Shown here: positions 9,182-63,790 of the stretch, one piece after another | Numbering within the stretch: the stretch's first letter is position 1 | Layout of the letters: each line of letters starts with the position of its first letter | Source of the DNA: Barthelona sp. PCE | Taxonomy: Eukaryota | DNA: 64,000 bases | Reading direction: 5' to 3' | Assembly (NCBI GenBank): GCA_040285745.1 | Contig: JAUFOR010000003.1 | Coordinates: forward strand, 1,364,001 to 1,428,000 | Notes under the pieces: model-generated | Databases searched by the model: none | What the model was told of the DNA's origin: nothing | The model's input: the letters and a program-made list of their open reading frames with translations, nothing else | Position numbers and translations under genes: made by a program

Positions 9182-9393
9182 ATGTCACGCGCTAAGGTCA
9201 CTAAAAGTGTAGCTCCCTCATCTGCATCCAACGTTGTCGCTGCTGATGACGCTCCCGGGTTTCACGTGTATGATCCATTTTTTTTTTAATGCATAATCTA
9301 ACGTTAAGTTCACCCAGGCACTCAATGTTCTTCGCCCTTTTCCTGATCATCATTGTTATCTTTTTGCACATTATGGGTAAGTTGCGCTCATAA
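9182..9393 (+). CDS. SEC61B: Sec61 beta subunit, 56 aa, two exons join(9182..9267,9309..9393); absent from ORF track
   Basis: Spliced product MSRAKVTKSVAPSSASNVVAADDAPGFHVSPRHSMFFALFLIIIVIFLHIMGKLRS* matches the Sec61-beta pattern DD.PG..V.P-TM-LHI.GK. Confidence 0.9.
9268..9308 (+). other. Spliceosomal intron, 41 nt, phase 2 (Sec61-beta)
   Basis: GTATGA...TCTAACGTTAAG; removal restores the Sec61-beta frame. Confidence 0.9.
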
Positions 9394-9440: not shown

Positions 9441-10189
9441 TTACAATAAACCCAATAGGATATAACCCACAATTGCTATCACAGTAATTGTTAAAACAAG
9501 TGTCATTCTGAAATTCCTCCAGAACATGATTTTTTTCAGTGTAGCTGCATTTCTATCAACTCCTTGACTTTCAACTCTCAAATTCTCTGTCTCATCAACA
9601 ACAGAATGAAGATTATGTAAGTTTTTGTTAAGTTTGTTAACATTTTGGGTCATTACGTCTGTAGTAACAGCAATTTGCGCTTTTGTACGTGAAAGAACAT
9701 CAACATCTTCAGAAGAAGAAAATTTGGAAAAAAGTTGTTCACACATTACCTTTGTCGGACGAGTTAATGAACCCTCCATTGAATTGGCAATGTCAGCTGC
9801 AAACTTATCATTGAATGAAGTCTGGAACTCACGGAAAAGATTTTGAATAACCCTGACAGGTGCATTAGGTTCAAATACAGCAATATAAATACAAGAATGG
9901 TCAGACTGGCAGCAAACTGTTCCTGCGTCGTCTTCTAATGTGAGTTTAGGAGTTGTTGAAGGATCTAAACGGTCTAAAATGGATTCAACAAGTTGAGTCA
10001 GTGAATTGCGTTGGTTACGAGGTAAATCGTTTGTGTGTAAGCACAGTTGCGCCTTAATGTTAGTAACATTTATGTATAAAGGATGTACAACACGAAAAAA
10101 AAATTGATCGCTATGTACATGTTTATGCAAAATACTTTATCGGGGTTATGCCTTGCGACACCCAGCAATCTTAAAAAAGGTAAGCTCAT
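9441..10189 (-). CDS. VAMP7: Longin R-SNARE VAMP7-like, 221 aa, complement(join(9441..10052,10136..10189))
   Basis: Exon 1 MSLPFLRLLGVARHNPDK joins AQLCLHT..., giving a longin-like N-terminus; SNARE motif VMTQNV...ETENL, MFWRN and a C-terminal TM helix. Confidence 0.8.
10053..10135 (-). other. Spliceosomal intron, 83 nt, phase 0 (VAMP7)
   Basis: Minus strand GTATTT...ACTAACATTAAG; same branch point spacing as the other introns; internal hairpin. Confidence 0.8.
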
Positions 10190-33455: not shown

Positions 33456-33546
33456 GTATGTTTGGCTGATGCTTCACTGTGACGTAACTTATAGATACGT
33501 CAGATTGTGCTGAGTTTATAATCCAAAAAGGACATCTAACACTTAG
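33456..33546 (+). other. 5'-UTR spliceosomal intron, 91 nt (IST1)
   Basis: GTATGT...TCTAACACTTAG, followed by 7 nt and then the ATG; the last 12 nt are identical to those of the phosphatase intron. Confidence 0.82.
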
Positions 33547-34312: not shown

Positions 34313-34393
34313 GACCTGATTGTATGTACATATGTTAATAAATCACTGATACGTAGAATTATATATACTGATTTTACAATAGCATGTTTAATA

Positions 34394-37300
34394 TTATTCA
34401 CCATTGAGGAAATAAACCCACTCTAGGTCGTCATGTGAAATGGTGAGACGACCCTTTGAAGAATCACCACGATGCAAGACTTGGATAGCAACACTTTTCT
34501 TGGCATCAACAACTTCGCTATTCTTAACAACAAAGTTGGGGTTATCACAGTGGATATTGAACATTGTTTGCTGATCAAAGATGTTCTTGAAGTTAATTGT
34601 AGTAGCACCGCCAACTAAGATCGGACCCTGAGGTCTTGGCAGAGTAGCGTGACCCTTCAATGGTATTGTATATGAACCAACGTTCTCATTCTCCAATATG
34701 AGTGTGGCGCTGAATGAACCAATTCCAAGTGGTTCAAACGAAACAGGTACCATAATGTGCTGTACAGATCCGTTCACAGTCAATGTGGGATCAACAGAGA
34801 AGAATCCTGTTGAGTGACCAGTTATTGATGCGTTGAACGTTACATTACTTGTACAAATATTGCGTAATTTTGCAGAAAGAACCATTGTCGTTCCGATTGC
34901 AGCTCTGAACGATAAAGGCCTCTCAGGTAATGGTGACAGGGTCTCCAGATCAAGGGTATACACAACAGTGTCAAGCATCTCACATGAGAGACGCAGCTGA
35001 ACTTGTTTTGTGACTGGTACTGTCGGAACCCACTTAACATCGAAGGGGAAGTGAGTGGCGTTGGGTGGAACGAGGAATTTGCGTGCTACCTCTATTGTAT
35101 CCTCATCACATTGTGATGTGAAGGAAACGGGAGTAGAGAGAGGATTGGAAATGTAAAGTGTCTTGTCAATTGATGAACGCAGAGGTGTGCGGACTTCATA
35201 AGGACCTAGCGGCTTGGGTGCTTCAACGTTAAGCTTAACATTGCACTCTAGATACTCGTTGGTTTCCATCACCCTGAACACAACATCAAATTCACAAACT
35301 TGATGCTTCTGGGCAATGAAAGAGAGGCTGAAAGGTTTGGTGGAGTTGGCTGGTACGTCCATGAAGGCTGCACCGTTGAGCTTGAACATTGATGAGGAGA
35401 AACTGGAAATTTCCTTCTCGACACCATCACTTCCTTTAATGAATACATGGAACCTCTGCACATCATTAAGCCAGTTGTTGATCTCAAGTGTGATGGGACA
35501 AACTTCTCTGGAAGCTGTTGTAACATTAACTGCTTCCATGGCTGATGGCTGACCTGAAATTCCAGTAAGAGAATAGTAGAAAGCATTACCATCTGGGAGC
35601 GCAATGAAGAGGGTTGCCTCATGAACATCGTTCTCAGAAGTCATTGCCAGAGGAGAGTAAACAACATCATAAGAAACGTTCTGACCCTCAATAATCTCAA
35701 CAGACGAGGCTCCGCGGAAGAAGCTGCTGCCATTGAATACAGGATTCAACATATAACGTGTAGCGTGGCCAGATCTGGGGGCTGCTGCTGGTGTTGTTGC
35801 TGGAGCCTTGCCACGAGACTTACCAGTGGGTGCTGGTGGTTCGGTTGAGCGAGCAGTGTTGCTCTCGAGCGATATGAGTTGGCTAGTGTTGAGTGTGAGA
35901 GTCTTTGTTACACCACTTCGGACAGCGGTCTCGAACTCAACCTTGTTCTCTTCGGGTACGTCTAATTGAACACAGACACCGCCCAACTCGAGATGAAGCG
36001 GGTCCAGTGTACTGCCCTCAATCTCGCACTCAAGCTCATAATCAATCATACGCTGCACCTTCTGAGGATGGAAGACGACATTGAGAGGTAAATCTTCACC
36101 AGCAGGAAGGTATCCTGACATTGGGTTGAGCTCAAAATCGTGCTCAATGCCTAATTGCTTATCGTTCAACACCTTAAAGTTGAAGAACGTCGGCAAATCA
36201 CCAAAGTTGTGAAGCAAAATACGGCGTGTGAGGCTTGAACCCAAAGCGACAGCCGGGAAGTTCAAATTGGATGATTCAAGCTTGACAGCTGTTCCCACAG
36301 ATGAACCCTCAACACGACCCATGGATATTGACGTGTCGCAGAAGTTTGCAATGATGGGTACCTGGAACTTGCCGATACGCTTGTTCGGTTTGAATGTGAC
36401 TGTGACGTCATACAGCTGCTTGGGGCCAAGTGTGAAGGGGTATGTTGGATAGATCGACAGCATCGACGGGAGTGAAGGGTCGATGATATCGCCAAACTCG
36501 AGCTCAAGAGATAGGTTTTCGATTGGAAGCTCTGAACGGTTCACCAGTGTAAATGTCTTGGTGACAACGTCGCTGACGCTTGTGCCAAGGAACGAAACAC
36601 GACATGTTGTGTTCGTCAACCTGCGTTTCTTGTTGTACACATAGAGTTTGGGCTGCATAGAGTTCACACCAACGGTGAGGGGAATGAAGACAATACCGCT
36701 GTTGATCGACAACTGCAATGAGTGTTTGTAGGCGCCAACTTCAATTGGCTTTACGTTGAATTTGTATGACTTGGTCTCGTTGGGCGACAGCGTTGTGCTA
36801 GAGAAGTCATGCGTCAACCATTGCACTGGCTCATCCTGCAGTTCAATAGTAAGTGGAATGTCGTCGTTGTTAGTGATCTCGAAGGGAAGTGAGTAAACAT
36901 CTGAATTCGGGGTCAAAACAAAGCGCTTGCCAAAGTCGATACGACGGGAAGAGAACTCAAGTTTGGGACGGTCAACTGATCCCTTGAAGCGAATGAGGTA
37001 CTTGCGCTCACGGCCAGGACCGAGTGCGATAACGTAATCAGCCGGATTCTCATCCAGCTCAACTGGCTCGGAAGTGTTCAAGGTTAGGTTTGTCTCGAAT
37101 GATGACTTCGTGCGAACGACCGTCTCGCTCTCGGGGATGTGGACCACTGAGGGGTTCTTATTTGACTTAAAGGGGAATATGGCAACGTTGAAATTAGCCA
37201 ATCCACTGTTTTGGATCTTAAACGTACGTGCGGCGACTTGATTGAGCAAGCATGAGCCAAAGTCAACAATGTTGGCCTTGCCTACCACGAGTTCACGATA

Positions 37301-40300
37301 GTTAACAACACCGTTTTGAGTAGTCTGGAGGTAGCAGTCCCCAATAAGGTTGTATCCTTGACCCTTAACGTTGAGCGAAAGCTTCATCGTCTTGCGGCGT
37401 ACATTGATACTGGCGTTGAGGTTGTAGAACTTCTCTTCGAATGAGGTAAATGATACCTTAAGAGGCAACATACCGTGGGGTGGTACGACGCCAGATACAG
37501 GTGAAATGTTAAAGATAACATTACGATCTATGTCCTCAAGAGTAGCATTATCCACTGTAAAATCGAATGGAATATCCTCGTTGTTGAAGAGCTCAAGCTG
37601 TTGAGTAACTGATGTTCCAACCAACAAATCACCAAAGTTAAGATGCGGCTTGTTAAGATACAACTGAGGCTCTACAGTACGACCGACCAATAAGAACTTC
37701 TGTACCAAATTGAACTCTGGAATTTCAATCATCCAACAGGACTCTTGGTTCTCCAATGAAGAAGATACAAACTCGAACTCAACGTGCTTCTGGCGACCGG
37801 GTTCGATCTTTCCATTGCACTCAAGACATGTAAACACACCATTGGTGACAGAGTGCTTGCGTACAGAGCGAATGGTTGCGTTCTTATCAATGCAGCTCAC
37901 AATGAAGCGGTAAGAGTACGAAGTTGGGTTAACAATGACGATTGAACCACGCGACTTAATATCAACACCACGATTTGCGAAATCAACGATTGACCAGTCG
38001 TGGGCCGTCTCGGTGGAAACAACGGTACCGTCTGGAAGAGCCAATGACGAATCTCGCTCGCTCGAGAAGAGGTACTTGCTCTCTGGCACATCAAAGTAAC
38101 ACAGAGGACGGAGCGTAACACCATCCAACGGGATACGAAGAGGTGCACAATCCTCATGAAGGTTAACTATACTGCAAGTCATGTCGAATCCGTTGTCAAA
38201 CACCTCAAGAGGGGCAAACACCAGTGAGAACTTCTGAGACTGTTGTGGGGGAATGACACCCTTAGCAGGTTCAACAGAGTAGGGACACATTGGCTTGTGT
38301 TCCACCTGTTTTGTATACTCAAAGTCAAAATCGTAACAAAGGTTTGAGTATGATGGGTTCTTGATGGTAAATGTGAAGACTCGCTTCTGATACATGTAAG
38401 TCTTCTTGAACGCAACCTTTCCGTACTTCTCAATGAGACTAGAAACATCATCACCAAGTTCATACTTGACAAAATCGACAGAGGCCTCAAACATAATCGG
38501 AAGAGGCGCAAGTTCCTGCTCGACAATGATGGTGGGTTCAGCGACGTTTGTTTGAAGACGGACAGGCTCTCCGCTTGCCGGATCATACGAAGCGGGTAAC
38601 GGGGGAACCTCGACTATCTTGGGAATAGGAGCAGCACCCTTCTTCTTACGGTTTCGCTTTTGCTTTTCAATCTCAGCCAACTCGCGTTCATAGTCGGAAC
38701 GGAGCTTCTGATAATCCTCATACGTGATGAAAGAGACTTCAGTCATATCAGAATTCCACTGAATGTCGCGATCACTTTCTTCTGCATATCGAATCTGTTG
38801 TAAGCCAATGTTAAGCGGCACCTCGACAACAGAAAGTTTCTCGTGCGCCTTGAGACGGGCATGAAGCTCTATTGTTTCACCAGGAAGAATATGACCAACA
38901 GCAGGCACGACGTTGAAATCGCACTTTGAAGATGACAGATGAGATGTAATGAAGTTTGTTATATCAACATTGAACTTGTACACATCATCACTGTGATTTG
39001 TTAAGTTAACACATCGAGTTGTTGTAACACCAATATCAACATCCACGAAGGAAAGTGATGCCATATCATCATCCTCAGCTGTGGAAAGTGTGAGGGGGGA
39101 TGAGTAAGAAATACCAATGAGTGGAATACATCTGGCATCAAAGCTGTTTTCGGGAACATCGACAATCAAGTATGACTTTGATACGTTGCAGCCCATATGT
39201 GTTGATGAACGAGAAGGTGAGAAGGTGACAAGCACGTCACGCGTCTCGTTAGGAGCAATGGTCACAGAACCACCTGACACTGCAAAACCGTCAAGAATGC
39301 TGACAAAGTCGATGCCGTCCATAGACGACACTGCTGTCGGTGAGAGACCCACTCGCAGCGATGTGTTGAGTACACCGGGGTTGTGAAGCGGGAGAGACAG
39401 TGAGTGCTGTTTTCCAACCCGGAGTTCAGGGAATATTATTGCGTTCTGCAACATGCTCTCCAGATCAGCGCTTCCAACCTCCTTCTTTGATCCCTTCGCA
39501 GTTGCTGCTGCTGCAGAAGGTTGAATAACCTTGTTCAACTCCTCACGAACAGCGTCATTGCGTAACAGTGACGTGATGTTATTTTCACGTGGAATTGTGC
39601 AGTGCATGAGAGGTAGAACACCTTCACCTAAGAAGTCAATTGATAACATGGGAACGGGCTCAGTCTCACCCTGCAGTGAGCAACAGCACACATCAAGTGA
39701 TGCACGGGTTGTCTGCAGATTACTAGGTTCAAAATATACAGTGACATATTTGTATTCATGAGGTGAAAGAACAAACTGCGTCTCTTTAAGGAAGAAGCCA
39801 GAGTTATTCTTCTGTACGCCAGAAGATGGTCTGCTCTTCGGGCGCTTGGGTTGCTTCTTGCCCTTACCCTCCTTCTTAACCTGAGCAGTTTCTTCTGTCA
39901 AATTAGAGAATAGGAATACGACCTTCTCGGAGATCTTTGTTGGATTAGAGATCTTCAAACGAACCTCGTGCGTCGAATTGAGACGACATGGTCCAAATGA
40001 AAAGCAGTTGTCTGAGATACTGAAGATATTGTTGGGAATTGTTGTTGCGAGTTGGGGGAACTCGTGCAAAACTGCATACTCCTCGAAAATCTCAGTGACA
40101 GACTTATCAATGAGAGGCTCACATCCATGACCACGGAAGTCAAGAGAGTGTGGAAGAGGAATGTTCTCTGTTGTGCCTTCAGTATCAAGGTGGATCAAGC
40201 TTCTAACATCAGCATCACTATCAGTAATACGGAGGAAAGAGCTGATACTCCAAACCGACCCGCTGTTGTCTGAAGTAACAGAAGTTCCGATATCTTCCTT

Positions 40301-43300
40301 TGTAGGCTTGAACTTGACTGTAAATGTAGCGGTCCTATTCGGTTCAACATTAACAACACCAGGAGAAATGGTGAAGGGACCAAGCTGCAATGGAGAGCCA
40401 TCTGAAATGACTTGCTTTCTCTCTTGAGAAGCAACAACCGCCCCCTTCTTCGGTTTGGCAGAACGAGGTGTCTTGCCTATGCTACTGGGAGCACGTGAAG
40501 TGGACACAGTACCGCTTTCAGCCTCAACTTTTGGCTCCATAAGATACTTGTTGTTGTACTCCTCCAACATTGCCTCGGTGACAATCTCAGCAGAGAATGG
40601 GAAAACGCCAGTGTTTGTGATTGTGAACTCACGAGTTAATTTAGCGTTAAACTCAAGAGGACCAAAGTTAATGCCTGAAGCAGGGTTCAAAATGAAACGA
40701 GAGAACACTGAAGTACATGTGACAAACACTGGAAGAACACCAATGCGTTCGTCTCTTTGAAGATCAAACACTTCAATCATCACATCAGGGCTGTCCACCA
40801 AATCAACAGTTGTCTTGGGCTTCCAAACGACGCTAAGATCAATGGATGTGCCGCTTTGCTCACCTGATGATGTAGGACGCTTCTTGCCTTTCTTACCAGT
40901 GTTAACTGAGCTAGCTAACTGATCTTTACCAGCGCTAAGCACGCCAGACGGCTGATCAACGACAAAACAACCCTTCAGAGGAGAGGTCTCCTTGACATGA
41001 AGACGGTACGAGATGTCGTACTTTCCACTGTTACGCAGAACAAGAGATGATGTTACTTCCTCATAAACACGGACAGTACCAAAGTCTATCTTTGTTTTCA
41101 GATCATCTTCATCCTTCTCACCTGAGTAAGTGGATGATGTAGCAGAAAGACAAGCAGAAACGTTACCGATGCTCAAGAGAATTTCATAGAACTCACCATC
41201 AAGAACAAGAGGGAGTGATTCCAAGCGGAACTTGTACAAAGAAGGATCAAGGCCTGTTGTTGCCTCAGGGAAGTAGAAAGAATCATAATAGGTGTTGATG
41301 GCTCCCGATAATGCAAACTCAAGAGCTTCAAGTGATAAGGCTTTAACCTTAACAATTACTTCATCCTGAGCCTTGACGACACCAGATGTTTGACTAAATG
41401 AGATGTAGTCAGGGATTTCCATGTCAATATCGAATGCCACGTCAACATAACCTGTGTTCTTCAAAGCCAAATCAAGCGATACTGACTTATCGGTAAGAAT
41501 CTTACCAAAGGACAGAGATTCAGTGGATAATGACAGACGAGGAACTGAACCAAGACTGTACATGGGGATGGTCACGTTATCAGGTTGGTTCAATACGTTA
41601 ATGATCAACTTATCACGAATAAGACAAGGAATCTGAGGGTAACAGTACACTTGTAAAGTCTTCTTCTCACCAGGTGCCAAAACCATATTATGCGATGACA
41701 AATGGAAGGTGGGGTTAACCGCCTGCTTGGCAACGTTGAGCTTTGAAAGTGTGAGGTGTGTTGCTCCATCAGGATTGAACTGGACCTTGTGCTCTGGAGT
41801 AGCAGATGTCTTTCCAGTTGCCTTACCTTTCTTCCTTGAACCCTGTTTGCTCTTAGGCTTGACAGGCTCTGGCTCTACTTCAACGACTTCAGCCTCAATA
41901 GGTTGAGATGTAACGTCGGGATTGAGAATGACACCTAAACCATCGTTTTCGAATGAAATGTCAATGTAAGATGTGAATAGACCAACGTTTGAAAGTGTAA
42001 TCTTTTGGAATACACGTTCATCATCAACGTACACAAAACGATCAGAGAGAGATTCGAACTGTGGCTCGACCAATACGTTTGATAAGAGCCCCTGGCATCC
42101 AAAGAACCAAAAATTTGGTGTGTGGATGTGCTTGTTCTGAATCCAACCCATTCGAATATCTTTGAATTTGTCGAGAACTTTTGAGAGTTGTTCAACATTA
42201 TCAAAGCTCGATGGTATCTTGAGGTCAAAGTCAAGTTGATGACGCGTAGAATATAGAACGCGGTCTGCTGTATCAATACATGGCTCATCACAAACACCCT
42301 TGAGAACGATGCGTTTATACAGAGACTCACTAATGACCTTTTGCAACAAGATCTCACGGGTTGTCTTAAGAACCGGGTTATCCTTGAATGTGAGCACACG
42401 CTTCATAAGGGTAGCATCAAGTGGCAATAAGAATGTAGGCACAAAGTGCAAGACAATGTTGAACTCGTTTTTAACACGACTTGTGAATCGTACTTTAAGA
42501 CGTAACTCGCCAAATGGTGCCAGCTCCCAACGTGACAGATCACTGACAAACTCTTCTGGCAGCTCACGAAGCTCAGGGATGTCTTCGTCTTTAATAACTT
42601 CAATAGTTGGCTGTTGACCTTTCTTCTTCTTTTTCGAAGTAGTTTCCTTGAGAGCTTGCATTTGTTCTGCTTGCTCAGTGAGCATTTCTTCACGCCGACG
42701 GTTATTTTCTTCAACTTCATAGCGAAGATCGTCAGTGAGCTCAGGATTTTGGGACATTATAGTAAACTTATAATCACCATCTTCAACGAGGAACTGAGGC
42801 TCAAACAGATCGTTATGGGGAAGACGGTAGTCGCCCTTCTCATTTGAACGCACGTTGTTAACAATCTTTTTCCAATCGCTCTCAACGAACAGTCTTGGTA
42901 CGGATGTGCTGGAGTTGAGACCAGTACCTGTGAGGTTATCAAGAACAATAGTCTTCAGGTTATCAATCAAGGTAAGCATATTGGAATCGTCATCATTGAC
43001 AATTGTTGCTCCTTCCTTCATTGCGTTGATAACTGAGGGGTCGTTCAAAAGTTCCTTTAGGTGTTGCTGGAAAGTTTCTTCATCTTCCCAATATAGATCA
43101 CTGCCACTTACGAACCCATTGATATCACTGTTAAGGCTCTCACAAATCAAACCTTGGATACCATTAATAACAAAGAATGTGTTAGCGCGTGCAGTTGCAC
43201 CAAGTTCAGTAACGAGTTGAAGACCACCAATAACACGGTTAGCGTTATTACTCAGCTCATCAGAGTTAACCGAACCATCTTCTTGAGGACGCAGCTCTTC

Positions 43301-46300
43301 AAGCTTGTTTGACAACATCTTTGGTGTATCGAACTCGAAAAATCGTGTAATAAATGCCAGCTCTGAAAGCGGAATGTTAATGCTGTCGGCGAACGGAAGA
43401 TCTGAAGGTAAGAAAGGTGTTCCTGGGAAGAATCCTAGAGAACTTGCCTTGTCACCTACATCTGCCATGACTGCCTCAAATTCGGTGCGAAGTTGCTGCA
43501 ATCTTTCCTCAGCAGCGTCAAGATCTTTCTTAACCTTCTTGCCGGCCTTCTTGACAGAAGCCTTGATTGAGAGGGTTTCAACCTCGTCCTCAAGCGCCTT
43601 AATTGAACGTGAATATAAAGTGCTCTTCAGAGTGGATGAAACAGCAAGCTCCATCGAGTTACTACCACCCTTGCGCTTAAACACACGTGAGAATTCCTTG
43701 AAGGTCCTGATGTATGTCTTAACCTCCTTGACAAGACGGTTACGCAAACGTAAGTTCTCATCATATGTGTGCTGTTGAGTGAGACCAAGCAGATCATACT
43801 CTTGCTCACTGAGTTCACTCAAATCCTTGAAGAACTCAAGAATCTCGATATCTTCTTCAGAAAGATCCAGTTCATGAAGAGTTAAGGACATTGATCTCTT
43901 AACACGAGTACGTGGAGTATCGTCAACAAAGCCAAATGAGCTGCTACGCTCTTCCTCTTCAGACTCCTCGTCCTTCTCACTGCCTTCTTCATCTTCAGTT
44001 TCACTTTCTAATTCAGTAATAGATTCAGGTGCAAGAAGTGATAAATAATGAGTAAATGCAAAGATCTTCTTGGACAACAACTGCAATACATTATCGATCT
44101 TGTGGAAATCTGCTGTCATAAGAATCTTCTTCTTCTTTGGCAGAAGAGAGAAAACCTCAAATAATGTTGTGATAACTTGGAAAAATGGTGAACCATTCAT
44201 CGTCTTACCCCTCTGCTCCTGTGTCATGTCATCAGAGAATGATAAAAGCTCCTCCTTCCACTCATAATTAATGTGATCTGAAAGCACTGATGTGATAATG
44301 ACACCATCACGGTACTTATCCTGTGAAAGCGCAAGGTACAAAAACTCGGCGAGGGTATCACCCTTATTCACGTGGAGGCTCTCCTGGAAGAAGCGCACAA
44401 CAGAGAATGATGTATCACGTGTCAGGTTGAATTGTTTCAAGAACGAAGCAGGTGATTTGAGGAACTTGTACACGTTTTGCAAGAGTTTGTACTTGCGGTC
44501 GTTATTATGCACATCAAGCTTGTGCTTGAGAGCAGACAAACGGGTGTTTAGATCATCGCTAAGATGCTGAACCAGCATCATGTTCTTGAAGTAAACTTCG
44601 TTCACCTCGTCGCTTAACAAACCAATAGCTTCGTTCATCAAGTCATCAACCGTGACCATTGGCACCTTGTATTTACCAGAAACTTCATAGAGCCAAGGCG
44701 ATTGCTGACCGTCAAATACTGATAAATGCACAATGTTGAGGGACTTGTCGAATGACTTCTTAACCTTTGCATCACCAACGTCAAACGCAATACTACGCTT
44801 GACTAACTGTTCAGGCACGGCAAGGCCATCTGCATCAACGGTCATTGCCAATTCCCCAACTTCCTCCTCCTCGTGTGATTCCATAATGGCGGCATCGAAT
44901 GATGGCATAGCAACGGCAACGGGTTCGCTGTAATCATCTTCACCGATATTCTCCAGAAGTGGTGGTGGGTTACCGCGCAACCACGGTCTCTGAAGACGAT
45001 CATCGTCGGGTAGAGGACCAACAAGCGGAATATCTGTGAGAGAAATCTCTGACATAGCGCGTGATGATGGGGCACCACTTAAATTCAGACTGCTGCCACG
45101 TGGTGTGCGACTTACACTACGACGACGTCTCCTTGGCTTCTTAGCCTTGACGTACTGCTCATGGTACTGTTTGTCAATGTTGATACAACATAGTTCAACG
45201 GGTGTGGAACCATTATTGCGAATAACAATCTCGCGCTCAGAAAACCAGGGATTACCATTGTCTTGCTCTTCCCAAGCAACCATGAGGTCATCCAGTGATG
45301 GTTTCTGCTGATGGTCTTCGGCCTTAGGAGTCTCAACTTCGCGCTCTGTTTTCCCTTTCTTACCCTTCTTGGGAGTCTTGGTGGGGGGTAAGTCAGCTTC
45401 AGACTTTTCACTGACTACGTTTGATAGCTCCTCTATCTTTGTCTGACGGTCAGCCTTGGCCTCCTCATGCAACTGTTCAAGAATAATGGCACCAAAATCA
45501 ACCTCATCAGCATCATCATTGAGTGAGTAATCGTGCGTAGCACCAATACCCTGCAATTCAATACTTGTTTTCTCGCCATCCTTAACCTTGAACGTAGTTG
45601 TGACAGTAAATATACCATCACACGGTGGCTTGAAGATGATTGGTAAATCGAACGACGTCTTGGAAGGAATCGTCTGACTGACAACTGGAAACTCAAACGG
45701 ACACTCTGATTCGCGCACGTCCTTCTTTCCAGGAATGCGGAACTGTGTCTTGAGCTTCTTTGTTGTGAGCGTAAATGTCACATCAAGATCGGTTGGGTTA
45801 TACAGTTTCAAGAAGTTTGTTTGCATCTCACCCACATACACATCGTCAAAGATGAGCCTATGGGCGCTGAGACACAAGTGCGGCATCTGCACTTTAGCGT
45901 GGACATAGATCGATAAGAATGGACCGTGCTGGGTAAGATTCAAAGGAACAATACCTAAAAAGTATTTATCCATGCGATCCCAACTGTTCATCCTGCTAAA
46001 GTAGTACTTATCATCAACCCTATCAGGAGCAAATGTGAATGTGAGATCAACACAATCGGGAGACAAGGTACCTTCACTTGATATGAGAGAACCACGGCGG
46101 GAATCTGATGTCTGGATGGATGTTGTTAGATCCGTCTTTGAGTATGTGGGGATATGTTGTACCTTCATGGGATTAATATTCAGTCCCATCTTACGCAGTT
46201 CAATTCGTGAAGGGGTGAAATCGAGATCGAAAGCGTAATAATCAATGTTCTTGAGTGTAAACATCTGATCATTTACGGATTTGGGAATAACGGTACCAAA

Positions 46301-49300
46301 TTCAAGCAGGTAGCAAAAGACGCTGCAATTCTTGAGCATGCCCACAAAGAAATTGAACTTCTTACGGAAGATATTCATATCCTCTTCCAAAGCCTTCTGG
46401 AAACGACTATCATCAACGTTGGACAACCTTGACACGGCACTTGGGCGGCGATTCAGAAGCTCTTCCTGCTTCTCAAGTATGTATGAAACCAAATTACTGA
46501 TCTGTCTTGAGAAGACCTCCGACGAATTAACCTGATTGATGGTCTGATAGTGCATGTTGGCAACGAACGTCTTAAGGAACTTGTTATCGCTCTCAGACAG
46601 CATGATTCTGTCTAGGGATAACACTAAAGAAGGAACAAGTGCATATACTTGAGCAATTAAGCTGATTGGAGGTAAAAAGTCCAATATAAGTAAAAACTTC
46701 TTCTTGATGAGACCAGGGAGTTTAGGCATCAGATGTACAGTAATCTGCACTTCATCACCAGCTGCAATGAACCCCTTGGAAGGCTCAATAAATAGACCAC
46801 TCAGACCCACGTCTTCGTCATCACTCAAGGTGAACTTGAAGTTATAGTCACATTTACCAGTGTTGCGGATAATAAATGTGTCCTTCGGGATAGTTGTAAA
46901 CTTACAACAGCCCAGATCAATGAACTGTTGTGATACATAATATGAAATGAATGAACAACGGCCTCGAAGATACAGGGAATAAAGAGGGCCGCCTTCAGTG
47001 TGTAATAACAACGAATGATCAACCAATAGATCTTTCGTTGCTGTGAACACAACTTGTACATCGATCTCTTCACCAGGTCCTAAAACAAAACTGTATGGTG
47101 TAACAGAAAAGAGATCACTAGGTTGGATATTTTGCTCATCTTCCTCGTTGACGTTGGAGTCGCCAAACGAAAACATACAATCACAGACTCTGTTGCTAGT
47201 GTTGCTGATAGTTAAAGAATCGGTTTTTGTTGTGTTGTTAAGAAGTGAGCCAAAGTTGATACCGACGTCACTGAATGACAAATTGGGGAATTCAAAGAAG
47301 ATATTAACACCAATCTCAGATATCTCACTGTAATTCAGACATTTGAGAATAATAGACTTCTTCTCTTTAATTGAATGCGTGAAGTCAACATAATTTGATA
47401 CAAACAGTAAAAGATAATAATACACTGTCTCTTTTGACTCAAGTTTAACGTTATCACTTGCATAGATATCAGTGGAAAACATATTCTCAGCTGTAATCAT
47501 TGCTTGTTTGAGTGGACCTACCATAACATCATTCTTATTTTGAGAATCTAAAAGCGTCACAATGCCCTCTTCATCAGCTGGGTCAACATGCTTAAATGTA
47601 TCAACAAGTTTTTTATGCTCGGTGTATTCATCCTCTGTAACCTTGATGAGACCAAAATTCTTTGGGGTGTTGAGCTCTAACTCAAGTGGAATATCAGTGT
47701 TGTTGGTGAGAGAGAAAGGCTGCATTAGACATGCAAAACCAAGAGACTTGATGACTGCATCATAACAGAAATCCATCGATGCCATCGGTACGCAATCCAA
47801 AGAGGGAGCAATGATTGATGCAGCGAATTTAAAGTTAAAAGTCTTCTTGTTCGCCATACGCCTTGCGTCTGAGTTGGAGATTTGCAATTGCAAATTAGCA
47901 TTGAAATTACCCATTTGTTTTGTGCTAATCGACATTGAAAAAATATGAAAAGCATTAGGTTCAAGACGAACTCGGTCAGGTGACATGGAGAACATTTGAC
48001 TCTTAACGCCATTTGAATTAGGCAAAACCTTCCATTGGAGGGTCATAACATCTGTACCGTGATTAACAATGGAGTAAAGGCGTACGATTGTGTCACTGCC
48101 TTGAATCTTGTTGAACAATAGATCTCCATAATCAACTTCAATGGTATCTGCTGGCAGACTGCTGTTGCGCAACAGTTCAGCGACCTCAACCGTTTCAACT
48201 GAATCACCAACCTCGACTCGGTTAATTTCGGTCATGATGATTGTTGAGCCCTTTCCAGTTGCTGTGAGTTTAACGCTACCACAGTCCTTGTTATCACTAT
48301 TTTCCAGTAAAATATCCAATACATTGACCTTCTTCAGATCAAAGGATCGCAAGAAACAATGGATTGGAATCTTCTCAACCGAAAGAGGGGCTATTATGTA
48401 CTCGCTGCTCTCAAGATAGAATGCTTCTGTCCGGTTACCCAATACAAGATGTACTGGAGCATCAATTGGAGAAGTGTTTTCTATGTTAAGGTACTTTGTA
48501 AACTCGGTTAAGCACTCACAGCCACCAAAGTTAACAGAATCATTATGAACAACAACGGACGGCCCGTAACAATCAAACCTGATGAGAACATCCCGTACAA
48601 GGCTCGAGTCGCTGATATCTTGTGTGCCGCCAATACTTCTCAGAGATAATGAAATGTTGTAATCACCTCGCATGAGGGGGAAAAGCTCAACTTCAACGTT
48701 GACACTCGATTCCGCTTTGATGATTGACGATTTTGGAGTGATATTCAAAAAGCCTGCGTTCTCAGTAGCCTGAGCTTGCGGGATACTGACAAACTTGAGG
48801 GGAATAGGACTGTTATTAATGAGTGTGAGGCTTCGCTTGACGCTCTTCTTCAAGTAAACCTTTCCAAAATCAATGAGTTCCTGATCCAAAATGAGCTCAG
48901 CAATTCGCGCCTCACCAACAATCGTGATAGTACGCATGGGTTTCTTTGAGAACTGTGGAAGGAATATATCAATCTTTCGTTCGAAAGTACCAACCTTTGT
49001 GGGGAGTACACTGAATGTGACAGTCTTTAAACATCCACTTTCAAGACATAACTCCTTATTTTCATCAGTCAGCGTTATGTCTTTCTCAAGAAGACCTGTT
49101 TGACAGTCTCTTATTTGATAATAGTAATCAAAATCGATCTCACCAATGTTCTCAATAAGAAACGAACGTTTCATAAGAAAACCAGATGACATATTACCGA
49201 GGTCGATATTTGGCGTAGATACATCAAACTTAGGACATTTAACAGTTGCTTTAATATGTAACTTGAGCAATTCAGTTACACCCTGTATTTGAAAATATAC

Positions 49301-50023
49301 ACTAAGGGATACGGGTGCGAACTTCTTGGGTAGAATCTTAATGACAACCTCCTGTGAGCTTTTGGATTCGATGATGCCCTCCATAGGTGATAGAGATACA
49401 TCCATCTCAAGAATATTAGTATTGAGTGGAGCAATCTGATAACGAGCTTTAAGTACACCCATATTACGTAGAGTAGCAATGTACTCGATCTCACTGTTCA
49501 GATATACGCTGCCCAAGTCAACATCAATATCTTCTAATCGAACATCAGGACCTTGACCAACACCATGAAGAGTCACTTCCAAACGCTGATGTTCAAAGCC
49601 ATCAAAGTCCATAACCTTGAGGTATGCCTTCTTAACGACAGTCCCCTGGATTTCTGGTGTAAAAACAATCTGAAAATCGTTTCGACCCGTTGGATACAAA
49701 GGTTTTGATAATGGATCGAGCGCAAATATCTTCTGGTCGTAGCACGAGAACTGCTCTACCGTTTTAAAGGGTAAATCTTCAAGAACACTATGAACATCGA
49801 CGTTTTCGTTGTGTGCACGTTCTGCTTCGATAGCTTTTGCCACATAGTCGTTGAACAGCACGATTTCCTCCTGTGCAGAGGCAAAACGAACCCATTCAAC
49901 AACACAAGGCTTCTTTCCAACGTTTTCAACACGAATGGAAGCCGATTGAACTGGGGTGTTCAGGTAGCTGGCGCCACAGTCAATCGTAGGGTTGCTAATG
50001 ATACAGTTGACGTCTAGTGGCAT
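34394..50023 (-). CDS. HYDIN: Hydin, axonemal central-pair protein (~5200 aa)
   Basis: Many ASH/Ig-like repeats (xDFG.V...L.N.G...F.V.P..G.I.PG), central insertion region, C-terminal PRPQGP..I.FKNIF..WVYFL; likely start ATG 50023. Confidence 0.92.
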   Translation of the reverse strand: MPLDVNCIISNPTIDCGASYLNTPVQSASIRVENVGKKPCVVEWVRFASAQEEIVLFNDYVAKAIEAERAHNENVDVHSVLEDLPFKTVEQFSCYDQKIFALDPLSKPLYPTGRNDFQIVFTPEIQGTVVKKAYLKVMDFDGFEHQRLEVTLHGVGQGPDVRLEDIDVDLGSVYLNSEIEYIATLRNMGVLKARYQIAPLNTNILEMDVSLSPMEGIIESKSSQEVVIKILPKKFAPVSLSVYFQIQGVTELLKLHIKATVKCPKFDVSTPNIDLGNMSSGFLMKRSFLIENIGEIDFDYYYQIRDCQTGLLEKDITLTDENKELCLESGCLKTVTFSVLPTKVGTFERKIDIFLPQFSKKPMRTITIVGEARIAELILDQELIDFGKVYLKKSVKRSLTLINNSPIPLKFVSIPQAQATENAGFLNITPKSSIIKAESSVNVEVELFPLMRGDYNISLSLRSIGGTQDISDSSLVRDVLIRFDCYGPSVVVHNDSVNFGGCECLTEFTKYLNIENTSPIDAPVHLVLGNRTEAFYLESSEYIIAPLSVEKIPIHCFLRSFDLKKVNVLDILLENSDNKDCGSVKLTATGKGSTIIMTEINRVEVGDSVETVEVAELLRNSSLPADTIEVDYGDLLFNKIQGSDTIVRLYSIVNHGTDVMTLQWKVLPNSNGVKSQMFSMSPDRVRLEPNAFHIFSMSISTKQMGNFNANLQLQISNSDARRMANKKTFNFKFAASIIAPSLDCVPMASMDFCYDAVIKSLGFACLMQPFSLTNNTDIPLELELNTPKNFGLIKVTEDEYTEHKKLVDTFKHVDPADEEGIVTLLDSQNKNDVMVGPLKQAMITAENMFSTDIYASDNVKLESKETVYYYLLLFVSNYVDFTHSIKEKKSIILKCLNYSEISEIGVNIFFEFPNLSFSDVGINFGSLLNNTTKTDSLTISNTSNRVCDCMFSFGDSNVNEEDEQNIQPSDLFSVTPYSFVLGPGEEIDVQVVFTATKDLLVDHSLLLHTEGGPLYSLYLRGRCSFISYYVSQQFIDLGCCKFTTIPKDTFIIRNTGKCDYNFKFTLSDDEDVGLSGLFIEPSKGFIAAGDEVQITVHLMPKLPGLIKKKFLLILDFLPPISLIAQVYALVPSLVLSLDRIMLSESDNKFLKTFVANMHYQTINQVNSSEVFSRQISNLVSYILEKQEELLNRRPSAVSRLSNVDDSRFQKALEEDMNIFRKKFNFFVGMLKNCSVFCYLLEFGTVIPKSVNDQMFTLKNIDYYAFDLDFTPSRIELRKMGLNINPMKVQHIPTYSKTDLTTSIQTSDSRRGSLISSEGTLSPDCVDLTFTFAPDRVDDKYYFSRMNSWDRMDKYFLGIVPLNLTQHGPFLSIYVHAKVQMPHLCLSAHRLIFDDVYVGEMQTNFLKLYNPTDLDVTFTLTTKKLKTQFRIPGKKDVRESECPFEFPVVSQTIPSKTSFDLPIIFKPPCDGIFTVTTTFKVKDGEKTSIELQGIGATHDYSLNDDADEVDFGAIILEQLHEEAKADRQTKIEELSNVVSEKSEADLPPTKTPKKGKKGKTEREVETPKAEDHQQKPSLDDLMVAWEEQDNGNPWFSEREIVIRNNGSTPVELCCINIDKQYHEQYVKAKKPRRRRRSVSRTPRGSSLNLSGAPSSRAMSEISLTDIPLVGPLPDDDRLQRPWLRGNPPPLLENIGEDDYSEPVAVAMPSFDAAIMESHEEEEVGELAMTVDADGLAVPEQLVKRSIAFDVGDAKVKKSFDKSLNIVHLSVFDGQQSPWLYEVSGKYKVPMVTVDDLMNEAIGLLSDEVNEVYFKNMMLVQHLSDDLNTRLSALKHKLDVHNNDRKYKLLQNVYKFLKSPASFLKQFNLTRDTSFSVVRFFQESLHVNKGDTLAEFLYLALSQDKYRDGVIITSVLSDHINYEWKEELLSFSDDMTQEQRGKTMNGSPFFQVITTLFEVFSLLPKKKKILMTADFHKIDNVLQLLSKKIFAFTHYLSLLAPESITELESETEDEEGSEKDEESEEEERSSSFGFVDDTPRTRVKRSMSLTLHELDLSEEDIEILEFFKDLSELSEQEYDLLGLTQQHTYDENLRLRNRLVKEVKTYIRTFKEFSRVFKRKGGSNSMELAVSSTLKSTLYSRSIKALEDEVETLSIKASVKKAGKKVKKDLDAAEERLQQLRTEFEAVMADVGDKASSLGFFPGTPFLPSDLPFADSINIPLSELAFITRFFEFDTPKMLSNKLEELRPQEDGSVNSDELSNNANRVIGGLQLVTELGATARANTFFVINGIQGLICESLNSDINGFVSGSDLYWEDEETFQQHLKELLNDPSVINAMKEGATIVNDDDSNMLTLIDNLKTIVLDNLTGTGLNSSTSVPRLFVESDWKKIVNNVRSNEKGDYRLPHNDLFEPQFLVEDGDYKFTIMSQNPELTDDLRYEVEENNRRREEMLTEQAEQMQALKETTSKKKKKGQQPTIEVIKDEDIPELRELPEEFVSDLSRWELAPFGELRLKVRFTSRVKNEFNIVLHFVPTFLLPLDATLMKRVLTFKDNPVLKTTREILLQKVISESLYKRIVLKGVCDEPCIDTADRVLYSTRHQLDFDLKIPSSFDNVEQLSKVLDKFKDIRMGWIQNKHIHTPNFWFFGCQGLLSNVLVEPQFESLSDRFVYVDDERVFQKITLSNVGLFTSYIDISFENDGLGVILNPDVTSQPIEAEVVEVEPEPVKPKSKQGSRKKGKATGKTSATPEHKVQFNPDGATHLTLSKLNVAKQAVNPTFHLSSHNMVLAPGEKKTLQVYCYPQIPCLIRDKLIINVLNQPDNVTIPMYSLGSVPRLSLSTESLSFGKILTDKSVSLDLALKNTGYVDVAFDIDMEIPDYISFSQTSGVVKAQDEVIVKVKALSLEALEFALSGAINTYYDSFYFPEATTGLDPSLYKFRLESLPLVLDGEFYEILLSIGNVSACLSATSSTYSGEKDEDDLKTKIDFGTVRVYEEVTSSLVLRNSGKYDISYRLHVKETSPLKGCFVVDQPSGVLSAGKDQLASSVNTGKKGKKRPTSSGEQSGTSIDLSVVWKPKTTVDLVDSPDVMIEVFDLQRDERIGVLPVFVTCTSVFSRFILNPASGINFGPLEFNAKLTREFTITNTGVFPFSAEIVTEAMLEEYNNKYLMEPKVEAESGTVSTSRAPSSIGKTPRSAKPKKGAVVASQERKQVISDGSPLQLGPFTISPGVVNVEPNRTATFTVKFKPTKEDIGTSVTSDNSGSVWSISSFLRITDSDADVRSLIHLDTEGTTENIPLPHSLDFRGHGCEPLIDKSVTEIFEEYAVLHEFPQLATTIPNNIFSISDNCFSFGPCRLNSTHEVRLKISNPTKISEKVVFLFSNLTEETAQVKKEGKGKKQPKRPKSRPSSGVQKNNSGFFLKETQFVLSPHEYKYVTVYFEPSNLQTTRASLDVCCCSLQGETEPVPMLSIDFLGEGVLPLMHCTIPRENNITSLLRNDAVREELNKVIQPSAAAATAKGSKKEVGSADLESMLQNAIIFPELRVGKQHSLSLPLHNPGVLNTSLRVGLSPTAVSSMDGIDFVSILDGFAVSGGSVTIAPNETRDVLVTFSPSRSSTHMGCNVSKSYLIVDVPENSFDARCIPLIGISYSSPLTLSTAEDDDMASLSFVDVDIGVTTTRCVNLTNHSDDVYKFNVDITNFITSHLSSSKCDFNVVPAVGHILPGETIELHARLKAHEKLSVVEVPLNIGLQQIRYAEESDRDIQWNSDMTEVSFITYEDYQKLRSDYERELAEIEKQKRNRKKKGAAPIPKIVEVPPLPASYDPASGEPVRLQTNVAEPTIIVEQELAPLPIMFEASVDFVKYELGDDVSSLIEKYGKVAFKKTYMYQKRVFTFTIKNPSYSNLCYDFDFEYTKQVEHKPMCPYSVEPAKGVIPPQQSQKFSLVFAPLEVFDNGFDMTCSIVNLHEDCAPLRIPLDGVTLRPLCYFDVPESKYLFSSERDSSLALPDGTVVSTETAHDWSIVDFANRGVDIKSRGSIVIVNPTSYSYRFIVSCIDKNATIRSVRKHSVTNGVFTCLECNGKIEPGRQKHVEFEFVSSSLENQESCWMIEIPEFNLVQKFLLVGRTVEPQLYLNKPHLNFGDLLVGTSVTQQLELFNNEDIPFDFTVDNATLEDIDRNVIFNISPVSGVVPPHGMLPLKVSFTSFEEKFYNLNASINVRRKTMKLSLNVKGQGYNLIGDCYLQTTQNGVVNYRELVVGKANIVDFGSCLLNQVAARTFKIQNSGLANFNVAIFPFKSNKNPSVVHIPESETVVRTKSSFETNLTLNTSEPVELDENPADYVIALGPGRERKYLIRFKGSVDRPKLEFSSRRIDFGKRFVLTPNSDVYSLPFEITNNDDIPLTIELQDEPVQWLTHDFSSTTLSPNETKSYKFNVKPIEVGAYKHSLQLSINSGIVFIPLTVGVNSMQPKLYVYNKKRRLTNTTCRVSFLGTSVSDVVTKTFTLVNRSELPIENLSLELEFGDIIDPSLPSMLSIYPTYPFTLGPKQLYDVTVTFKPNKRIGKFQVPIIANFCDTSISMGRVEGSSVGTAVKLESSNLNFPAVALGSSLTRRILLHNFGDLPTFFNFKVLNDKQLGIEHDFELNPMSGYLPAGEDLPLNVVFHPQKVQRMIDYELECEIEGSTLDPLHLELGGVCVQLDVPEENKVEFETAVRSGVTKTLTLNTSQLISLESNTARSTEPPAPTGKSRGKAPATTPAAAPRSGHATRYMLNPVFNGSSFFRGASSVEIIEGQNVSYDVVYSPLAMTSENDVHEATLFIALPDGNAFYYSLTGISGQPSAMEAVNVTTASREVCPITLEINNWLNDVQRFHVFIKGSDGVEKEISSFSSSMFKLNGAAFMDVPANSTKPFSLSFIAQKHQVCEFDVVFRVMETNEYLECNVKLNVEAPKPLGPYEVRTPLRSSIDKTLYISNPLSTPVSFTSQCDEDTIEVARKFLVPPNATHFPFDVKWVPTVPVTKQVQLRLSCEMLDTVVYTLDLETLSPLPERPLSFRAAIGTTMVLSAKLRNICTSNVTFNASITGHSTGFFSVDPTLTVNGSVQHIMVPVSFEPLGIGSFSATLILENENVGSYTIPLKGHATLPRPQGPILVGGATTINFKNIFDQQTMFNIHCDNPNFVVKNSEVVDAKKSVAIQVLHRGDSSKGRLTISHDDLEWVYFLNGE

Positions 50024-53713: not shown

Positions 53714-55837
53714 ATGCCTCGTTTTCACACTCTTGATCACTTGTTCGAGCTTTTTTCAGATGATCTAGCCGCTGTAGGATCTACCATCGGTATTGAACTC
53801 AACAAGAAACACTTTCAGCTAGTATGTTTGCGATTGAGTGGTTAAATGAGTTTATAACCACTGTTTCGAAGCTTGCCTCACACCTAGTGCGCTCGTAAGA
53901 ACGAAGGAGATGTAACTGTCCTTGTGTTCCAATTTGCCAAACAGCTCAAAATGAAACCAATGGACATTGCCGCTTTGTTCATTGAGAAACTTACAGAGTA
54001 CGTTGCTGAGCACGAAGAATCGTTCATCTCACACGCTACTCAAGCCAGAGCTTATGTCAATATCCATCTGAAGCGATCCATGGTATTTAAGCATTTTATT
54101 GGGCTTGTTAACGATAACAGCAGTGAATATGGTTATATTGACACTAAGAAGGGTCAAAAAGTTGTCATTGAACACACATCATCCAACCCTAACGCACCTC
54201 TTCATATCGGTAATCTCAGAAATTCTCTCCTTGGCGCACACCTTGCTAAGCTTCTTGAGGCCATTGGCTATGATGTCGATGAGTACTTCTTCGTTAATGA
54301 TATGGGGGCTCAGATTGGTCTGACCGTTTTTGCATACTCGAAGGTTTTCCATCTCGTCAAGCCGACCATCAAGATCGATCAGTGGGTCGGTATCATCTAC
54401 GCCATGTCCAACACTTTTGTCGAGCTCCAAAAGGATAAAGTGGATCTCAACGCCCTTGTTGATCTTAACGAAGGTATCATTAACGAACTTGTTGAAGCCA
54501 GTGAGAACAAGGAGCACACTGCTGAGTATATTGATATCTGGCAGGACCTCCTCGTCCGTTTCCCTGAGTTAGGTGGCGTCATGCTCAACGAGCTTAAAGA
54601 TGTTGGCTCAATCAAGCTTGAAGGTGCCCAGATGAATTTGAAGTACGAACAGAACGACCCCGAGATCGTTCCTCTGTATAGGCAGATGGTAAACTATGTG
54701 TTGAGCGCAGTTCAAAAAACACTGGATACTTATGGCATTCAGCACAACGCTTGGCATTATGAGTCAGAGCTCTTGTGGGATGGTTCAGTCTCCCAGGTGA
54801 ATGACATCGTCCTTGACAGCCCCTACTTCGTTCCAGCAACACTGTGCAACAAAGAGGGTGTTCCCGAAGGTGGTTACATTGATCTGAACAAATACATTCA
54901 GGACGCCGGTCTAAAGGTCGGTAAAGGTGGCTACATGAAGAACTATCCCCGTCTCTATGTGTTCCGCCCTGATGGATCCACACTTTACTCCTTCAGAGAC
55001 GCAGTTTACTCTCTCAAGAAGATTGAAAATTCTGATTTGGTGTTGAACATCATCTGCTCCGAGCAGAACTTGGCTCAAGAGAAGGTGTCACTTGCTCTCC
55101 AAATGCTCACAGAGGAAGGTAACAAGCTCTACCATTTCTCATATGACCTGGTTAAGCTCACCACAGGTAAGATGTCTGGTCGTCGTGGCCTCTATCTCCT
55201 TGCTGATAAACTGTACGAAACCCTTCAGGATGAGGTTCAGCAGATCATTGACAGCCGTAACGTTTCTCTTTCTCAAGAAGAGAGGACGAGCATCGCACAC
55301 GAGGTTGCCACTGCTACTATGAAGTACTCTCTCTTGAACCAGAAGCCTCTCAGTGTCATTAACTTCGATGTTGCAAAGGCCTCCGATCCATCCAGCGCTG
55401 GTTCTGGTGTTTCAGTCTTGTACAACATCACCCGTATCACATCAATTCTTCGTAAACTGGATGACATGATCAATGATGGTAAGGTTGAGTCCCCTATTGA
55501 TAACATTGAAGATATTGACTTCACAGCGTTGGACAATGATAAGGAATGGCAGATCTTCCTCAAGTACGTTGTTGGTCTTTCAGCTATTATTCAAGAAGCC
55601 GCTGACGTTGATATCCCCAAGCACCCCAAGCTTCCTAATTATGGTACTCATGTCGTACCTGGTGCTCTTGCTTCTTTCGCTCAGGATTTCTCTTCATATT
55701 ATAAGGCTGTTCGTATTTTGGTTCAAGATGGTGATCACAATGTATTGAGTGCTCGTATTCAACTTATTCGTGTGTTCCAACAGGCTATGAATAATCTTCT
55801 TGCTTTGATTCCCATCAAGCCTCTGGAGAAGATGTAG
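53714..55837 (+). CDS. argS: Arginyl-tRNA synthetase, 685 aa, join(53714..53821,53888..55837)
   Basis: EHTSSNPNAPLHIGNLRN, DGSTLY..RD, KMSGRRG, DALR-type domain, C-terminal PLEKM; exon 1 plus EGDVT..FQFAK completes the N-terminal domain. Confidence 0.93.
53822..53887 (+). other. Spliceosomal intron, 66 nt, phase 0 (ArgRS)
   Basis: GTATGT...CCTCACACCTAG; contains an in-frame TAA; removal joins the ATG exon in frame. Confidence 0.88.
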
Positions 55838-58618: not shown

Positions 58619-58782
58619 TACAGCAACAGGAATCAGGTTATATATTTTTAAACACAAAAGTGTCAATTTTTTACTATATTTCTCTCATAAAGCTCTATAT
58701 TATCGTGAATGTGCTGATCATTACCTTTAATTTTCCAATTGAGTAAAAACAAGTTCTCCCAAACTATTTTGCAAAGAATGTA

Positions 58783-59205
58783 TTAAATGCGAAGAATATT
58801 CAATAAATATGAAATCAAAACCCTAAAAACGTTCGAAAATGCAACAGATATATACAAAAACGAAATAACCACCAGCGAAAATACAAAACCTATCACCTGC
58901 AAAACAGTTGACGTAATAACATCATATACCGGTTTCAGTTCGACAATTGCTCCATAAAATCGATGCTTAACTCCCACCAAAACCTCTTGAAAAGGCCGAA
59001 TTGAAATATCTGCAGTATACATCTCAGAATCAAACATATACCTGCAGTACAGCTCCAAACGCAGATCAACACTATTAGAAACAGAGTTTAACTCATACTT
59101 AGATAAAAAACATATTTCCCCATTATAAGAACATTGTTGTAAATATGACCCAAAAGTCAAGGCTAAAAGTGCAAAAAAGATTGCCCAATCCCTAATAAAA
59201 AGCAT
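58783..59205 (-). CDS. Small hypothetical membrane protein, 140 aa
   Basis: Signal-like N-terminus, C-terminal TM helix, pyrimidine-rich leader. Confidence 0.55.
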   Translation of the reverse strand: MLFIRDWAIFFALLALTFGSYLQQCSYNGEICFLSKYELNSVSNSVDLRLELYCRYMFDSEMYTADISIRPFQEVLVGVKHRFYGAIVELKPVYDVITSTVLQVIGFVFSLVVISFLYISVAFSNVFRVLISYLLNILRI

Positions 59206-59333
59206 AAGAGTCTTAAAACAAAAAGCAAAAAGTTGATCTAATTTTTTGCCTCCGCTTATAGAAACGTATTATGTATCACAGTGGATAGTATTTACAAAGA
59301 AAAAGTCATGCTGATGATAATAAATCTCAAAAT

Positions 59334-62740: not shown

Positions 62741-63790
62741 ATGAATGATATTAATCAAGCTATCGAACAGCTTAGACAAGGGAAATTCCTCAGGGAAGTT
62801 CAGATGAAGAGCATCATAACAAGAGTATGTAGTGTAGTTTTTCCATCATTTAACATAGCAACTGAGCATATATGTTCAACTAAACGTCATTTTAAGCACG
62901 GACTGTATTGCACGTTGAATATAAGGATTTTTCTATCTTATTCATTATTCTCTAACACTTAGTGTATTGAACTGTTCTCAAAAGAACCCAATATTGTCAT
63001 GCTGAAGCCGCCTGTCACAATTGTAGGCGATATTCACGGACAGTTACATGATCTTATTGAAATTTTCCGCATTGCAGGAGATCTACCTTACACAAGCTAC
63101 CTTTTTCTGGGTGATTTCGTTGATAGGGGCTACTACAGCGTTGAATGTGCTAGTTTATTGTTTGCTTTAAAAGTTAAGTATCCCAACCGTATCACACTAT
63201 TAAGAGGTAATCACGAGTCAAGACAAACAACACAGCTGTATGGATTCCACGAGGAGTGTGTCCGAAAGTACGGTAATTCCAATGTATGGCGATCATTCAT
63301 CCAGGCATTTGATTGTCTGCCAATCAGCGCTACAGTAGACTCAATATTTGCCCTCCATGGTGGTTTGAGCCCAGTAATCGATACACTTGATCAAATCAAG
63401 AACTTGGAGAGGAAGCAAGAAGTGCCACATGATGGAGCTCTTTGTGATCTTCTTTGGAGTGATCCTGATCCACGCCAGGGTTTCTTCCTCTCTCCCAGAG
63501 GCGCAGGATTCATGTGGGGTTCAGGATGTAGCGATGGTTTCCTCCATAGGAATGGACTCTCTCTTATTGCACGTGCTCACCAGGTTACAATGGACGGATA
63601 TCAATATATGCACAACAATAAGGTCGTCACCATCTTCTCTGCACCGAATTATTGTTACAAGGTTGATAATTTAGCTGCTCTTATGGAGGTTGACAACCAT
63701 TGCGATCATTCTTTCCAAGTTTTCGAACCTGCTCCTCGTAGAGGACAACCACACGTAACACGCTCATCACCTGAATACTTTGTCAGCTAA
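62741..63790 (+). CDS. PP2A-family Ser/Thr phosphatase catalytic subunit, 303 aa, join(62741..62824,62963..63790)
   Basis: GDIHG, GDFVDRG, RGNHE, SAPNYCY; tail [12 protein letters not shown] resembles PP2A; the two adjacent ORFs join through an intron. Confidence 0.92.
62825..62962 (+). other. Spliceosomal intron, 138 nt, phase 0 (phosphatase)
   Basis: GTATGT...TCTAACACTTAG; removal gives ...[25 protein letters not shown]. Confidence 0.92.

Follow-up and report, generated by a model that had tools for sequence, protein, structure and literature searches.

The 64-kb window analyzed here comes from the metamonad Barthelona sp. PCE, an anaerobic flagellate, and a named public protein encoded in it is 100% identical. 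Among free-living eukaryotes, this organism has the smallest known genome. The window is compact eukaryotic DNA (34–46% G+C), in which the standard code opens 23 ORFs of at least 150 aa, distributed over both strands and separated by short spacers. According to the published genome description, the assembly comprises 10.2 Mb in 8 contigs with a G+C content of 40.3%, the gene models were predicted with RNA-seq guidance, and the organism belongs to the "BaSk" clade, sister to Fornicata (PMC11316075). We considered an alternative code of the Hexamita type (TAA/TAG read as Gln), under which the 66-nt intron of the ArgRS gene would be translated through. This code was rejected because TGA and TAA/TAG alike terminate genes in the window, and standard-code ORFs stay open for up to 5209 aa.

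Two of the ORFs are giants, at 34394–50023 (− strand, 5209 aa, the longest of the window) and 14793–23339 (− strand, 2848 aa); the 2848-aa protein gave no Pfam match at E ≤ 1e-5. The longest spacers of this tightly packed window, 5627–6344 (718 nt) and 58619–59333 (715 nt), contain no ATG-started ORF of at least 150 aa and no Rfam match. The second of them holds, on the − strand, a 161-aa stop-to-stop frame that looks hydrophobic by eye.

Five introns lie in the window, each at the 5′ end of a gene. The shortest interrupts the Sec61-beta gene (9268–9308, + strand, 41 nt, phase 2, GTATGA...TCTAACGTTAAG). Four longer introns are found in the ArgRS gene (53822–53887, + strand, 66 nt, phase 0 after codon 36, GTATGT...CCTCACACCTAG), the gene of the longin SNARE VAMP7 (10135 to 10053, − strand, 83 nt, phase 0 after codon 18, GTATTT...ACTAACATTAAG), the 5′ UTR of the IST1 gene (33456–33546, + strand, 91 nt, GTATGT...TCTAACACTTAG), and a PP2A-type phosphatase gene (62825–62962, + strand, 138 nt, phase 0 after codon 28, GTATGT...TCTAACACTTAG). 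Their 5′ splice site is extended and conserved, reading GTATGT in three of the five introns and GTATGA or GTATTT in the remaining two. The branch box is CTAAC in four introns and CTCAC in one, followed in all five by 4 nt and then AG. [quoted passage not shown] The 3′ motif CTAACRYTWAG occurs 4 times in the window where 0.15 occurrences are expected (0/100 shuffles reach 4), and every copy has a GTAT donor 41–138 nt upstream, at the 5′ end of a gene.

A relaxed motif scan of the window for other intron candidates returned only matches within ORFs or with poor branch boxes. Among the rejected strings, GTATGT...CCTAG, starting at 47178 (− strand), lies in frame inside the 5209-aa ORF. A 35-nt intron-like string at 34322–34356 (+ strand, GTATGT...CTGATACGTAG) begins 10 nt past the stop codon of IST1, within the spacer of 81 nt that separates this gene from the convergent 5209-aa gene. 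With a poorly matching branch box and a length below that of the 41-nt class, it is probably a chance occurrence.

Excision restores a conserved reading frame in 4/5 introns, the fifth being the 5′-UTR intron of IST1, to which the frame test does not apply. The unspliced ArgRS frame reaches a stop at codon 44, while splicing yields 685 aa identical to the public Barthelona sp. PCE protein P0001, and exon 2 joins the Pfam profile Arg_tRNA_synt_N at position 31 of 85. Spliced VAMP7 (221 aa) is likewise identical to a public protein of this organism (P0230), with both the Synaptobrevin and the Longin domains in exon 2. As the public models were built with RNA-seq guidance, they lend indirect support to the splicing of these two introns. 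Spliced Sec61-beta is a 56-aa ORF closed by a stop; its second exon covers positions 19–41 of the 41 of the Sec61_beta profile at a sub-threshold score (17.3 bits vs. a Pfam cut-off of 27). For IST1, support comes from the motifs alone because the ORF that starts with the ATG at 33554 already encodes the whole Ist1 domain, from residue 10 on; the intron ends 7 nt before this ATG.

The phosphatase gene spans 62741–63790 (+ strand) and its spliced product has 303 aa, the usual length of a PP2A catalytic subunit. Exon 1 aligns with PP2A N-termini. Of 7 homologues aligned, 6 match the spliced product over the junction without a gap; the other, a Barthelona paralogue (P0122), has a shorter and divergent N-terminus. 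Judged by homology, the 138-nt intron is authentic. The public model of this gene (P0110, 263 aa) begins at an internal ATG at 62999 and omits exon 1 (62741–62824) together with the intron. At least one public gene model therefore needs an intron added.

The original prediction stated that the longer introns fold toward an effective length of about 40 nt by means of internal hairpins, and it named a stem or stems for each of them. Our analysis confirmed that these stems are present at the positions given and fully paired in all four long introns, where they lie within intron positions 10–99, outside the first 7 and the last 12 nt. In ArgRS, AGTGGTTA (53837–53844) pairs with TAACCACT (53855–53862) through 8 Watson-Crick pairs around a 10-nt loop (dG −8.6). 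Removing this hairpin (53837–53862, + strand, 26 nt) leaves 40 nt. The two VAMP7 stems, of 7 bp and 5 bp (dG −5.6), leave 45 or 32 nt and form a composite hairpin spanning intron positions 10–60. As predicted, both introns come near the length of the 41-nt Sec61-beta intron, which was correctly described as having no obvious stem and which we find unstructured (MFE −1.1, z +0.33).

The named stems did not bring the two longest introns to this length. The IST1 stem (7 bp at 33480–33502, plus 3 bp from CAC/GTG; dG −9.0) leaves 68 or 56 nt and not 40. In the phosphatase intron, a 10-bp long-range stem with one G-U pair (62871–62880 with 62914–62923; dG −7.2) leaves 85 nt. This stem is missing from both the MFE and the centroid structures, the MFE structure itself having an ensemble frequency of 0.0045.

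We compared the MFE of each whole intron with 200 dinucleotide shuffles. ArgRS (z −2.74, 2/200 shuffles as stable) and VAMP7 (z −3.64, 0/200) were more stable than their shuffles, and IST1 (z −0.53, 56/200) and the phosphatase (z +0.38, 126/200) were not. When the first 7 and the last 12 nt were forced to be single-stranded and 1000 shuffles were used, z was −2.68 for ArgRS, −3.06 for VAMP7, −1.50 for IST1, and −0.43 for the phosphatase. Folding at 21°C gave the same pattern over the introns. We also compared the longest perfect stem of each intron with 400 shuffles: the 8 bp of ArgRS were matched by 0/400, the 7 bp of VAMP7 by 13.8%, the 7 bp of IST1 by 8%, and the 6 bp of the phosphatase by 79%. 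The perfect stem is exceptional by itself only in ArgRS.

As controls, 134 segments of matching lengths were taken from the window (54 intergenic and 80 coding). Ten of them reached z ≤ −2 and two z ≤ −2.7, with a minimum of −3.95. Against this background, finding at least 2 of 4 long introns at z ≤ −2.7 has a probability of about 0.001–0.003, and the four long introns combine to a Stouffer Z of −3.27 to −3.83. The excess of predicted structure is real, and it is carried wholly by ArgRS and VAMP7 and not by the two longest introns. The IST1 and phosphatase introns have local stems, yet their predicted folds show no structure beyond that of random sequence of the same composition. Stems no more stable than shuffles, which the original prediction named as evidence against itself, were thus found in the two longest introns, the authentic 138-nt one included.

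To evaluate the effective length itself, we used the exterior-loop length, defined as the unpaired exterior nucleotides plus two per helix and taken from Boltzmann samples. The observed value was 29.5 nt for ArgRS (shuffle mean 31.4; fraction of shuffles at or below the observed value 0.29), 32.9 for VAMP7 (36.2; 0.25), 32.6 for IST1 (33.4; 0.40), and 31.0 for the phosphatase (39.4; 0.12). The exterior lengths of the MFE structures, 30–34 nt in the long introns, were equalled by shuffles too. This measure fails to discriminate because shuffled introns likewise fold to 31–39 exterior nucleotides, and predictions for four introns therefore cannot demonstrate convergence on about 40 nt. By our count, the predicted folds of the long introns come to about 31 nt and not to 41, and shuffles lie on average just as close to 41 (P = 0.86). 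Their four exterior lengths fall within 3.4 nt of each other (29.5–32.9), a range found in 1.9% of shuffled quadruples, for a statistic that was picked post hoc.

These results bear on a neutral origin of the hairpins, which could be by-products of events in non-coding sequence such as small inverted duplications or palindromic slippage, with lengths of 41–138 nt simply tolerated and no function in spacing. Such an origin would account for the fact that shuffles fold as well as two of the four long introns, the longest among them, that random sequence already reaches an exterior length of 31–39 nt, and that a similar z is sometimes found in controls (2/134 at z ≤ −2.7, one as low as −3.95). 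It does not account as easily for two of four introns at z ≤ −2.7 given the window background, nor for an ArgRS hairpin that takes out exactly the excess over the 41-nt class; moreover, the same pattern is described in three other metamonad genera (PMC6679479). We regard a neutral origin as possible, though doubtful.

The sequences inside the introns were also examined for common elements. The ArgRS and IST1 interiors have a string in common, 12 of 13 nt being the same (53848–53860 and 33512–33524, both + strand; local alignment score 23), located about 16–21 nt upstream of the branch A. This string may be a shared element or chance. The Sec61-beta intron at 9272–9287 (+ strand) and the VAMP7 intron at 10095–10109 (− strand) both read GATC, one base, A, and then a run of T, T10 in the former and T9 in the latter. 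Their genes are convergent neighbours, and the T9 run tops the VAMP7 hairpin. The overall alignment of these two introns was not significant (0.107). A search for ArgRS relatives in metagenome contigs gave 41 pattern matches, 0 of which were confirmed by tblastn.

Stems could be functional without acting as rulers, by masking cryptic sites, by presenting a T-run or another protein-binding element in a loop, by regulating splicing, or as a small RNA. Pointing this way are the T9 run in the apical region of the VAMP7 hairpin, together with the T10 run of the unstructured Sec61-beta intron, and the ArgRS/IST1 string, whose score was reached by 1 in 300 shuffles among ten pairs compared. However, after correction for the ten comparisons this string has a P of only about 0.03, no element recurs in all four long introns, and the whole window, introns included, gave 0 Rfam matches at gathering score. 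A function of this kind seems improbable to us. Still more remote is an origin of the inverted repeats as remnants of an introner-like mobile element that created or lengthened the introns. The presence of inverted repeats in the long introns is the sole point in its favour, whereas the repeats are internal and not terminal, 9/10 intron pairs have no interior similarity beyond that of shuffles, and repeats make up a reported 4.46% of the genome (PMC11316075, Table 1).

In our opinion, the hairpins of ArgRS and VAMP7 are most likely stems of the zipper type. With introns, stems, and an excess of stability in two of the four long introns at hand, we infer that the stems may form in vivo and may act by shortening distance. 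[quoted passage not shown] A simplified spliceosome that recognizes the intron as one short unit could thereby pair both ends. The positions of the branch A are consistent with such spacing, as it is nucleotide 34 of the 41-nt intron and, once the hairpin is collapsed, nucleotide 33 of the ArgRS intron (59 − 26). For the 91-nt and 138-nt introns, either any compact fold would suffice, or the length requirement would be looser than a strict ruler. The five are genuine spliceosomal introns of the reduced metamonad type, and we hold the zipper-stem explanation of the hairpins with about even confidence. The original prediction went further, proposing that the spliceosome needs a near-fixed distance from donor to branch point and tolerates extra length only as folded RNA. 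Stems above chance in the 66-nt and 83-nt introns agree with this proposal, but the two longest introns, which would be expected to need it most, fold no better than shuffles.

In yeast, according to work published in 2008, zipper stems reduce the structural distance to the branch point, and they affect splicing efficiency and correlate with it (PMC2536676). They form in vivo, and modelling gave a minimum linker of 42 nt (PMC12350175), of the same order as the 41-nt class of Barthelona. In both organisms the 5′ site reads GTATGT and the branch box CTAAC. In contrast, yeast introns are longer, the distance from their branch point to the 3′ site is variable, and their stems are experimentally proven where those of Barthelona are predicted. 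The Barthelona stems start 9–15 nt downstream of the 5′ end and stop about 17 nt short of the branch A, a closer spacing than the 20-nt yeast minimum (PMC12350175).

The likeness to other intron-poor metamonads, in which longer introns also carry internal stem-loops, is close. Hudson et al. (2019; PMC6679479), who cite Roy et al. 2012, describe structured long cis-introns in Giardia lamblia, Spironucleus vortens, S. salmonicida, and Trichomonas vaginalis, and report predicted stem-loops in the longer introns of these three genera that would bring the splice sites to within 35–45 (or 25–44) single-stranded nt. Spironucleus has in addition a uniform class of short introns of 40–43 nt, to be compared with 41 nt in Barthelona, and S. 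vortens has a 5′-UTR intron in Rps15 (section 6) as Barthelona has in IST1. Unlike these organisms, Barthelona represents a separate lineage, the BaSk clade sister to Fornicata (PMC11316075). It uses the standard genetic code, unlike Spironucleus, and its 3′ consensus, ...CTAACRYTWAG, differs from those of Giardia and S. vortens (PMC6679479, section 5). The evidence differs in kind as well. The methods of Hudson et al. (section 23) describe MFOLD predictions and inspection by eye and mention no shuffle control there, while in Barthelona such a control was applied and 2/4 long introns pass it.

The same authors proposed that such pairing precedes intron fragmentation and trans-splicing (PMC6679479), and the original prediction likewise saw in the stems a precondition for split introns as known in Giardia. 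The suggested route would be the same in Barthelona, where complementary arms within one intron correspond to the proposed precursor state. However, unlike in Giardia, the 64-kb window contains no split gene and no orphan half-intron. The search for orphan donors and acceptors came out empty: the 4 strict 3′ motifs and the ArgRS variant, a fifth, all have a cis donor, at 41–138 nt for every strict motif, which lends no support to trans-splicing in this window. In addition, Spironucleus stems of similar size to the 7–10 bp arms of Barthelona were judged too short to hold separate halves together (PMC6679479, section 13).

The idea that was put forward for these introns is a rediscovery, as Hudson et al. 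had described the model and its link with trans-splicing in Giardia, Spironucleus, and Trichomonas (PMC6679479). The novelty lies in the lineage, a separate metamonad branch that shares this intron architecture. In the Barthelona genome paper, the word "intron" appears once in the main text, in the methods, and intron structure is not analyzed, though supplementary intron tables may exist (PMC11316075). The fixed-spacing idea, in which hairpins buffer extra length for reduced spliceosomes, rests on a handful of introns from Giardia, Spironucleus, and Trichomonas. Our results add a caution, as only two of the four long introns stand apart from shuffle controls, and random sequence also reaches the predicted "effective length". 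Intron density in the window (5 per 64 kb) looks much higher than that of Giardia, and this genome could therefore offer a statistically adequate test of the ruler. In the most far-reaching reading, which we think rather unlikely as a whole, Barthelona would have several hundred such introns if this density holds over the 10.2 Mb, the first metamonad set able to test the ruler statistically and possibly to reveal split introns outside Giardia.
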